Made by a program: the position numbers and the translations under genes. Below, piece by piece: positions 20,987 through 21,497 of a stretch of DNA of 61,979 nucleotides. Position 1 is the first letter of the stretch, and every line of letters starts with the position of its first letter. Under the pieces are notes generated by a model that was not told the origin of the DNA, made no database searches, and saw only the letters and a program-made list of their open reading frames with translations. The stretch lies in sequence record PV340552.1; one strand, written 5' to 3'. This DNA is from Escherichia phage PhiR12_3.

Positions 20987-21161
20987 AGCTGCGGGTGCTT
21001 GAGGCTGTCTGCCTCGGGCATGCAGCCGTAAGGCAGACAGAGAAAAGCCCCAGTTAACATTACGCGTCTTGCAGGACGCTTAACATTAATCTGAGGCCAA
21101 ATCTATGACTTACAAACTTAGGTTAGCCTCTTACGTGCCGAAAGGCAAGGAGAAGTAGGCT

Positions 21162-21317
21162 ATGAAGCAGCAAAAGGCGATGTTAATCGCCATGATCGTC
21201 ATCTGTATTACCGTCGTAGTGATAGCACTGGTAACGAGGAAAGACTTCTGCGAGGTACGAATCCGAACCGGCCAGACGGAGGTCGCTGTCTTCGTAGACT
21301 ACGAATCTGAGAAGTAA
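21162..21317 (+). CDS. hok: Hok/Gef-family type I toxin
   Basis: 51 aa MKQQKAMLIAMIVICITVVVIALVTRKDFCEVRIRTGQTEVAVFVDYESEK, near-identical in pattern to HokD/RelF and Gef; short upstream overlapping ORF (mok-like) ends just before ATG. Confidence 0.85.
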   Translation: MKQQKAMLIAMIVICITVVVIALVTRKDFCEVRIRTGQTEVAVFVDYESEK

Positions 21318-21497
21318 GAGACCAGGCAGGGGAGTAATCTCCCGCCACCTCTGATGTGTCTGGCATCCTCAACGCACCCGTACTTTATTTGTCATATGCT
21401 CCGCAAAATGCAGGTTGTCGTTGCAACCAATGCGGTAATTTTTTGTGTGCGAGTGCTCAAAAAACGTTGATTTTCATAAAAGGATGATTTTATGCTG

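Follow-up and report, generated by a model that had tools for sequence, protein, structure and literature searches.

Directly after the antiterminator gene Q, the window (our term for the whole stretch of 61,979 nucleotides of DNA analysed here) carries a 51-codon hok ORF on its plus strand, preceded by a short mok leader ORF and faced on the minus strand by the gene for a Sok antisense RNA (Table 1). The region of about 20981..21387 is very probably a hokW-type hok/mok/sok type I toxin-antitoxin cassette, located inside an island that interrupts the 3' end of an H-19B-type Q and upstream of the late promoter. This judgement covers identity, anatomy and position; activity is weighed separately below. 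The 51-codon ORF and its translation are exactly as a preliminary description of this DNA, made from the sequence alone, had given them, and the Hok/Gef family membership proposed there is borne out by Pfam HOK_GEF (PF01848), which covers residues 6-47 of the product (E=2.7e-21; 75.3 bits against a cut-off of 22). For the NCBIfam Hok subfamily, the product scores 50.8 bits, under the cut-off of 73 of that model. It is identical to HokW at 46 of 51 residues and, at 42 of 51, to the HokD-like protein that is the commonest relative among related loci and that links it to E. coli K-12 hokA-E (hokD/relF in Qin). The five differences from HokW of 933W are L11M, L16I, I19V, T21I and L29F. Residue 29, which adjoins a conserved Cys, is Phe here and Leu in every other related copy sampled, among the matches listed. 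Between hok and hokW, 7 nucleotide changes lie in nonsynonymous codons and 2 are synonymous.

The surrounding DNA gives the same picture. A base-by-base alignment over 408 nt (20980-21387) yields 91% identity to the annotated mokW/hokW/sokW locus of 933W, and megablast with this part of the window returns about 77 phage records at 91-93% identity, including 933W and Sp5/VT2-Sakai, in both of which the matching stretch carries the annotations mokW, hokW and sokW. Rfam RF01794 ('sok') matches with its whole model (1-157) at 20993..21167 on the plus strand, with 118.4 bits against a gathering score of 59. The Pfam and Rfam scores, together with the leader elements described below, exclude a chance origin; a short ORF arising by chance and without function, for which the small size of the ORF and nothing else would speak, is refuted by both database matches and by the identity to a characterised locus, and its probability is negligible. 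At the level of its sequence, the cassette is structurally complete and is an ordinary member of the well-known hok/sok family, the known picture of which it leaves unchanged.

A prophage of E. coli G6/7 and SCU-104 matches the window at 100% identity, and at the hok position of the G6/7 copy RefSeq has a CDS, WP_016232225.1, named 'Hok/Gef family protein'. The gene had been described as unannotated, which is right for an ORF track with a cut-off of at least 60 aa, from which it is absent, but does not extend to public records. For annotation, the value of the present analysis is that the gene after Q in this Stx1c-type / stx-negative prophage group can be named as a hokW-like toxin gene, one that RefSeq recognises already.

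Table 1. Features of the cassette, the island and the late-promoter region, in window coordinates
Feature	Position	Strand	Basis
Antiterminator gene Q (PF06530), last ~16 codons replaced by island sequence	20537..20962	+	Pfam; homology to H-19B Q stops at 20914
Inserted island, ~4.37 kb: new Q C-terminus, hok/sok, heptamer tract, HsdM-like gene, HsdS-like gene	20915..25279	+	Local blastn
Putative hok mRNA promoter: -35 TTGAAA (20959-64), 16-nt spacer, -10 TAGAAT (20981-86)	20959..20986	+	Sigma-70-like scan
Predicted full-length hok mRNA	20993..21385	+	5' end inferred from promoter and Rfam model start; 3' end from fbi and homology end at 21387
tac element GGGTGCTTGAGG, predicted mRNA 5' end	20993..21004	+	Pairs with fbi in full-length fold, with ucb in 3'-shortened fold
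Sok antisense RNA gene, 71 nt: 5' single-stranded tail, long hairpin, then GGGGCUUUU	21043..21113	-	Mapped from sokW misc_RNA in AF125520
ucb (AAGCCCC), putative anti-SD box for mok	21045..21051	+	Pairs with mok SD region in full-length fold, with tac in 3'-shortened fold
mok SD (GAGG, 21093-96) and shortened mok ORF (ATG 21105 to TAG 21156-58, 17 codons)	21093..21158	+	ORF listing; cassette comparison
Hypervariable block: Sok 5' tail, mok start codon, first mok codons	21099..21119	.	Entropy peak of 89-sequence alignment
Sok promoter: -35 TTGCCT (21148 to 21143), 17-nt spacer, -10 TAACCT (21125 to 21120), +1 G at 21113	21120..21148	-	Identical to 933W
hok SD (AAGGAG, 21147-52) and hok ORF (21162-21317, 51 aa)	21147..21317	+	Pfam; identity to HokW; RefSeq annotation
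3' stem-loop GGCAGGGGAG-TAAT-CTCCCGCC, presumed protective end of processed mRNA	21326..21347	+	Predicted in both folds; role by analogy with R1 (PMC9841398)
fbi element CCTCAACGCACCC, complementary to tac	21367..21379	+	Long-range helix in full-length fold; conserved in 89 cassettes
Inferred late promoter pR' (TTTACA-16-TATCAT, 25295-25322) and first terminator (25355-25378)	25295..25378	+	Promoter/terminator scan; homology

Leader elements, the Sok gene and predicted folds

The putative hok promoter matches at 10 of 12 positions and is the sole strong sigma-70-like site that the promoter scan found in 20800-22200. Its -35 element overlaps the Q stop codon (TGA, 20960-62) and is specific to the Q-linked lineages, differing from that of 933W and lying closer to consensus (TTGAAA); its -10 element is conserved in related cassettes. 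Transcription is predicted to start near 20993, the RNA beginning with GGGUGCUUGAGG (tac), and the full-length RNA (20993-21385) has a predicted MFE of -153.3 kcal/mol (z=-6.45). In this fold, tac forms a 12-pair helix with fbi, which reads CCUCAACGCACCC at 21367-79, and the mok SD region is sequestered through pairing to an upstream box (GCC/CAG, about 21047-53). When the last 33 nt are removed (fold of 20993-21352, a thermodynamic prediction in which the processed 3' end at 21352 is assumed), tac is predicted to move onto AAGCCCC and the mok SD to be freed from that box, a refolding that reproduces the published switch of R1 hok mRNA (summarised in PMC9841398). The inverted repeats that the preliminary description had noticed in the leader correspond to hairpins at about 21005-21040 and about 21053-21090, and the mRNA fold-back elements (tac/fbi) are likewise present in the predicted fold.

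Comparison of 89 distinct cassettes adds a further view of these structures. The tac-fbi helix is 99.3% paired across the set yet nearly invariant, and hence without covariation signal, and a single clear compensatory pair was found, an A-U/G-C exchange carried by 66 versus 17 sequences. Covariation support for the folds is weak because the cassettes are too alike (93% mean identity), and the 42-nt pattern used for collecting the loci forces zero variation at 21137-21178. Just past the cassette, a candidate intrinsic terminator (21400-21446) was rejected, with a fold z of -0.62 and a negative scanner result on the plus strand, and the spacer 21385-21500 had no match in the phage collection.

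A Sok-like promoter on the minus strand, anticipated in the preliminary description, was found, with -35 and -10 elements identical to those of sokW in 933W; the generic promoter scanner had missed it, its consensus match being too weak. The mutagenic primer YO-421, which made sokW 'promoter-less', alters exactly TAACCTA, the motif conserved at the Sok -10 here, and in that mutant antitoxin activity was lost and HokW toxicity unleashed (PMC8621323). The Sok 71-mer is predicted to fold at -27.8 kcal/mol (z=-4.67) into a 5' tail and a long hairpin (terminator) followed by U's. Judged by its sequence, Sok would be a cis-encoded antisense RNA that has a promoter and a terminator of its own and can pair with the mok start. 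The Rfam match was rejected as evidence for the antisense strand, as it lies on the hok sense strand: although named 'sok', RF01794 ends at the hok AUG, and its matches (20993-21167) mark the hok leader. The match therefore supports a conserved leader and, alone, shows no antisense RNA.

Variation among the 89 cassettes is concentrated in a single entropy peak at 21102-21118 and takes the form of discrete alleles. The hypervariable block around this peak is 57% identical to 933W, against 89-98% for the remainder of the cassette, and the Sok-tail allele of the window, CAAATCTATGACTTACAAACT, is confined to its own lineage. Such hypervariability of the Sok tail is consistent with allele-specific Sok/hok recognition in genomes with several hok loci. 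A query running from Q through hok to the methyltransferase start found a median of 2 and up to 9 matching places per E. coli genome, mostly hok-related.

Two characterised systems are closest to the cassette. The hokW-mokW-sokW locus of 933W/Sp5 (AF125520), which also resides in a lambdoid prophage, has the same promoter -10, tac, ucb, Sok promoter and terminator, hok SD, 3' hairpin and fbi, but mok is cut at codon 18 here (CAG>TAG), the block spanning the Sok tail and the mok start is another recognition allele, and the genomic site differs, being between Q and pR' here and next to attR, after the tail genes, in 933W. In that system, HokW is toxic and localises to the inner membrane, and sokW RNA acts as antitoxin (Takada et al. 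2021, PMC8621323). For the cassette described here, the preliminary description had suggested a role that may lie in stabilisation or abortive infection. The hok/mok/sok (parB) locus of plasmid R1 shares the architecture and the predicted RNA switch (tac/fbi, ucb, mok-coupled hok, antisense Sok), as well as an identical spacing from the hok SD to the ATG (AAGGAGAAG-NAG-GCN-ATG), whereas its Hok is only about 44% identical in protein sequence to the HokW type (PMC8621323). The R1 genes mok and hok are read in different frames, while in the hokW/gef subfamily they share one frame, and R1 hok/sok is plasmid-borne and acts in post-segregational killing.

An R1-type hok locus was also encountered on plasmid pMTY1886_IncFII (positions 277-610); its Hok is identical to that of R1, and PLSDB annotates only a 33-aa piece of the toxin. 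This copy presumably differs from R1 itself in the first mok codons, and its mok would thereby be in frame with hok, as in hokW. Between the SD and the ATG, the R1-type copy reads AAGGAGAAG-AAG-GCC-ATG where the window reads AAGGAGAAG-TAG-GCT-ATG, with the same spacing.

By homology with hok/sok of R1 and hokW-sokW of Sp5, from which we infer expression, processing and toxicity, the cassette would operate through the steps established for its family. A stable hok mRNA would be made from its own promoter and silenced by the pairing of tac, at its 5' end, with fbi, at its 3' end, and ucb would hide the mok ribosome-binding site in the full-length mRNA. Slow 3' trimming would then let tac pair with ucb instead and expose the mok site. 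At this stage the short-lived Sok (minus strand, 21113 to 21043) would pair over the mok start and block translation of mok, and hence of hok, and the Sok-hok mRNA duplex would be marked for RNase III. Once Sok was no longer replenished, mok would be translated, the hok start region opened and Hok made, and Hok would insert in the inner membrane and collapse it.

Position between Q and the inferred late promoter

The Q protein encoded here is 73% identical to that of H-19B. Local blastn splits the H-19B interval from Q to stx1 into two blocks, nt 1-378 matching 20537-20914 and nt 408-507 matching 25280-25379, which indicates that 29 nt within the 3' end of Q gave way to the island between them. 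Strain 2013C-3033 has the same island in its Stx1c prophage, immediately ahead of stx1c, and there the second block runs on to stx1c at 96% identity. From its position and homology, we infer that this second block contains pR' and the first terminator, the 25295..25378 segment having about 86-90% identity to the segment that follows or overlaps the Q end in H-19B and in an O111 Stx2 prophage. With the promoter/terminator block at this place, the cassette sits between Q and the late promoter, an unusual but explicable site.

This arrangement bears on the placement of hok immediately downstream of Q, at the head of the late region, as it had first been described. The gene is indeed physically the first after Q, but the pR'/first-terminator module lies 4.3 kb further on. 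It could still be argued that the hok locus heads the Q-dependent late operon and is expressed with the lysis genes, since it follows Q in the same orientation and since HokW assists lysis in Sp5, where the published role of hokW-sokW is to aid lysis and phage release on induction and deletion of the locus halves phage release (PMC8621323). However, members of that operon lie downstream of pR' and the first terminator, and hok, at 21162, lies well before both: the promoter/first-terminator sequence that overlaps the Q end in H-19B and the O111 Stx2 prophage is found here beyond the island, it continues uninterrupted into stx1c in the Stx1c relative, and there is no such module between Q and hok. 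Moreover, HokW of Sp5 appears about 1 h before the endolysin R after induction (PMC8621323). Membership of hok in the late operon is thus highly improbable. The hok promoter was likewise considered, and rejected, as doubling as pR', with the H-19B-type block at 25280-25379 and the post-Q region without homology to it. Neither hok nor the island appears in the paper on pR' (PMC6266700). Between Q and the late promoter there is room for an accessory island of 4.4 kb, and therefore 'downstream of Q' does not mean 'late gene'.

The Q allele is rare: 33 of 5,426 E. coli genomes carry it. The match spans the Q/hok junction in 29 of these (two sub-lineages, at least 90% identity), and hok was confirmed in every copy examined.

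The mok amber codon and the state of the toxin arm

The short upstream ORF that had been seen to end at a TAG just before the hok ATG runs from ATG 21105 to TAG 21156-21158. Calling this a mok-like arrangement was correct in that an upstream ORF exists, with its own SD and ATG, both of them conserved, and a frame reaching the hok SD and start region, but the normal form of mok is a 70-codon frame that continues through hok, and here this frame is cut to 17 codons by a lineage-specific amber (CAG>TAG at codon 18), so that full-length mok overlapping hok is absent. This amber is located past the hok SD, and 3 nt separate it from the hok ATG. The 70-codon mok, in frame through hok, is kept in 82 of 89 distinct related cassettes, with more than 15 N-terminal alleles, and the amber position reads CAG in 121 of 122 related cassettes, among the matches listed. 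The TAG allele was found in the window, in E. coli G6/7, KY177 and 2013C-3033 (among the matches listed) and in 11 viral contigs. Each copy combines it with the precise Q junction and with one and the same Sok-tail allele, and no TAG copy was found apart from the Q junction. A sister Q-linked lineage, whose Q is about 90% identical and whose junction is the same, keeps CAG, and in all five of its copies a +1 insertion frameshifts hok. All Q-adjacent cassettes found therefore carry a lesion in the mok/hok unit, with the Sok promoter untouched, and the independent lesions in the two Q-linked lineages hint at a cost of hok at this site.

Since the amber arose secondarily in a locus whose descent places it in the family, and since the overlap past the hok start is dispensable in R1, this lesion lowers our confidence in activity and not in membership. 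Its place 3 nt before the hok ATG implies that any Hok synthesis here would come from termination-reinitiation and not from read-through of overlapping frames. A stop located after an SD and a few nucleotides from an ATG usually permits reinitiation through translational coupling, and the position of the amber beyond the hok SD makes termination-reinitiation plausible. We lean slightly towards a cassette that is still able to make Hok, though probably less of it; the chance that the toxin arm is silent falls a little short of even.

The main rival reading, which we regard as a substantial possibility though not the favoured one, is that the toxin arm is dead or nearly so, the cassette being a decaying relic that keeps its RNA elements while the amber uncouples hok from mok. 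It would then resemble most chromosomal hok loci of E. coli K-12, which are decaying relics. Pedersen and Gerdes, in 1999, reportedly found many K-12 hok copies in which IS elements, rearrangements or the absence of regulatory elements had abolished activity while the RNA elements persisted; the lesion here differs in being a single mok nonsense codon and, in the sister lineage, a hok frameshift. The uniqueness of the amber to one lineage, the wide conservation of the 70-codon mok, the independent frameshift of the sister lineage and the defect in each Q-adjacent copy next to an untouched Sok promoter all point towards such a relic, and L29F and the excess of nonsynonymous changes fit relaxed constraint. 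Intact hok in all complete copies with the TAG allele (10 of 10 viral contigs, the window and 3 of 3 E. coli genomes) argues in the other direction but is indecisive because the lineage is too young.

The R1 list of mok stops, which we take to start with Q6 and L10 and to comprise six codons in all, involves first mok codons in which the plasmid copy differs. The possible stop codons enumerated on the R1-type plasmid copy, namely Q15, G16, E17 and E18, agree with the residues named in the R1 study (PMC9841398). That study reports that toxicity is lost in mok start-codon mutants and with five recovered premature mok stops that precede the hok start, in line with a dead toxin arm, whereas mok stops beyond the hok start keep it (PMC9841398). 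Against a dead arm, its authors require mok translation only 'at least up to the hok SD', a point that the amber described here lies beyond; the R1 stops cannot say whether a stop as close to the hok ATG as TAG 21156-58 is tolerated (PMC9841398). In this respect, a natural mok amber allele 3 nt before the hok ATG offers a ready-made test of the extent of mok translation needed for hok. Residual production of Hok by reinitiation remains the reading that we narrowly prefer.

A different proposal concerns the trigger. Read-through from the N-antiterminated pR-nin-Q transcript would hit the convergent Sok promoter on prophage induction, Sok would vanish and Hok would be released early. The scan found no terminator between the Q stop and the hok promoter, and Sok transcription is convergent to transcription from Q to hok. 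In 933W, int to cIII and hokW lie on the same strand, so that, once the genome has circularised, transcription from pL would cross attP and read hokW in its sense orientation. After mitomycin C, sokW RNA is lost in a RecA-dependent manner (PMC8621323). Of 66 distinct upstream contexts, 60 gave a call, and in 48 of these (about 80%) the longer nearby ORF points the same way as hok, a crude count that ignores phylogeny and whose contexts are not independent. We consider an induction-coupled trigger, argued purely from such arrangements, unlikely.

This proposal can be extended to the position of the cassette as part of its mechanism. In both the window (pR via Q) and 933W/Sp5 (pL via int and attP, after circularisation), the cassette lies co-oriented at the far end of an N-antiterminated early operon, from which read-through would silence Sok and fire Hok before holin, and over-active copies at the Q junction would acquire attenuating lesions. 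The near-consensus hok -35 at the Q junction would over-activate the gene and would thus explain the lesions in both Q-linked lineages, the mok amber and the hok frameshift. If true, this would also explain the RecA-dependent loss of sokW RNA, but we rate the whole as improbable.

Heptamer tract and other neighbouring features

Downstream of the cassette and still inside the island, 83 perfect copies of the heptamer GACCAGC form a tract at 21501-22081 (region 21492-24133), between an ATG with a good SD (21492) and the HsdM-like methyltransferase gene. The frame of the methyltransferase is open back through the entire tract, which reads as (DQRPATS)n in each of the three frames. RefSeq starts the gene at a TTG (22172), and the 30 codons before this start are conserved in homologues of Acinetobacter, Arsenophonus, Clostridium and Lactobacillus, whose starts correspond to within a few codons of the tract end. 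With 83 copies, ATG 21492 is out of frame, and any multiple of 3 copies would bring it into frame; in relatives the tract has 9, 19, 34, 79, 83 and 120 copies. We regard the tract as a candidate phase switch, driven by its repeats, of a prophage methyltransferase. In STEC, a phase-variable Type III mod gene is driven by this heptamer too, written CAGCGAC[n] (PMC5909438); we rejected that gene as the same locus, its flanking primers being absent from the window. RefSeq places a 'YXWGXW repeat-containing protein' on the minus strand of the tract, an annotation that is probably spurious.

Just downstream of the inferred pR' and first terminator, Rfam identifies an STnc100 sRNA at 25474-25690 on the plus strand (149 bits), which ends at a strong terminator (25659-25685).

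Elsewhere in the window, on the minus strand at about 14398-14700, a 100-aa 'BsuBI/PstI family type II restriction endonuclease', annotated by RefSeq in the identical prophage (L002, 2999-3301), adjoins the repressor gene and, given its size, may be a fragment. Two copies of a C4 antisense RNA and isrK pair lie on the minus strand at 4001-4199 and 13593-13780, and a c4 target a1b1 match is present at the first copy; such pairs are immunity RNAs of the P1/P7 type.
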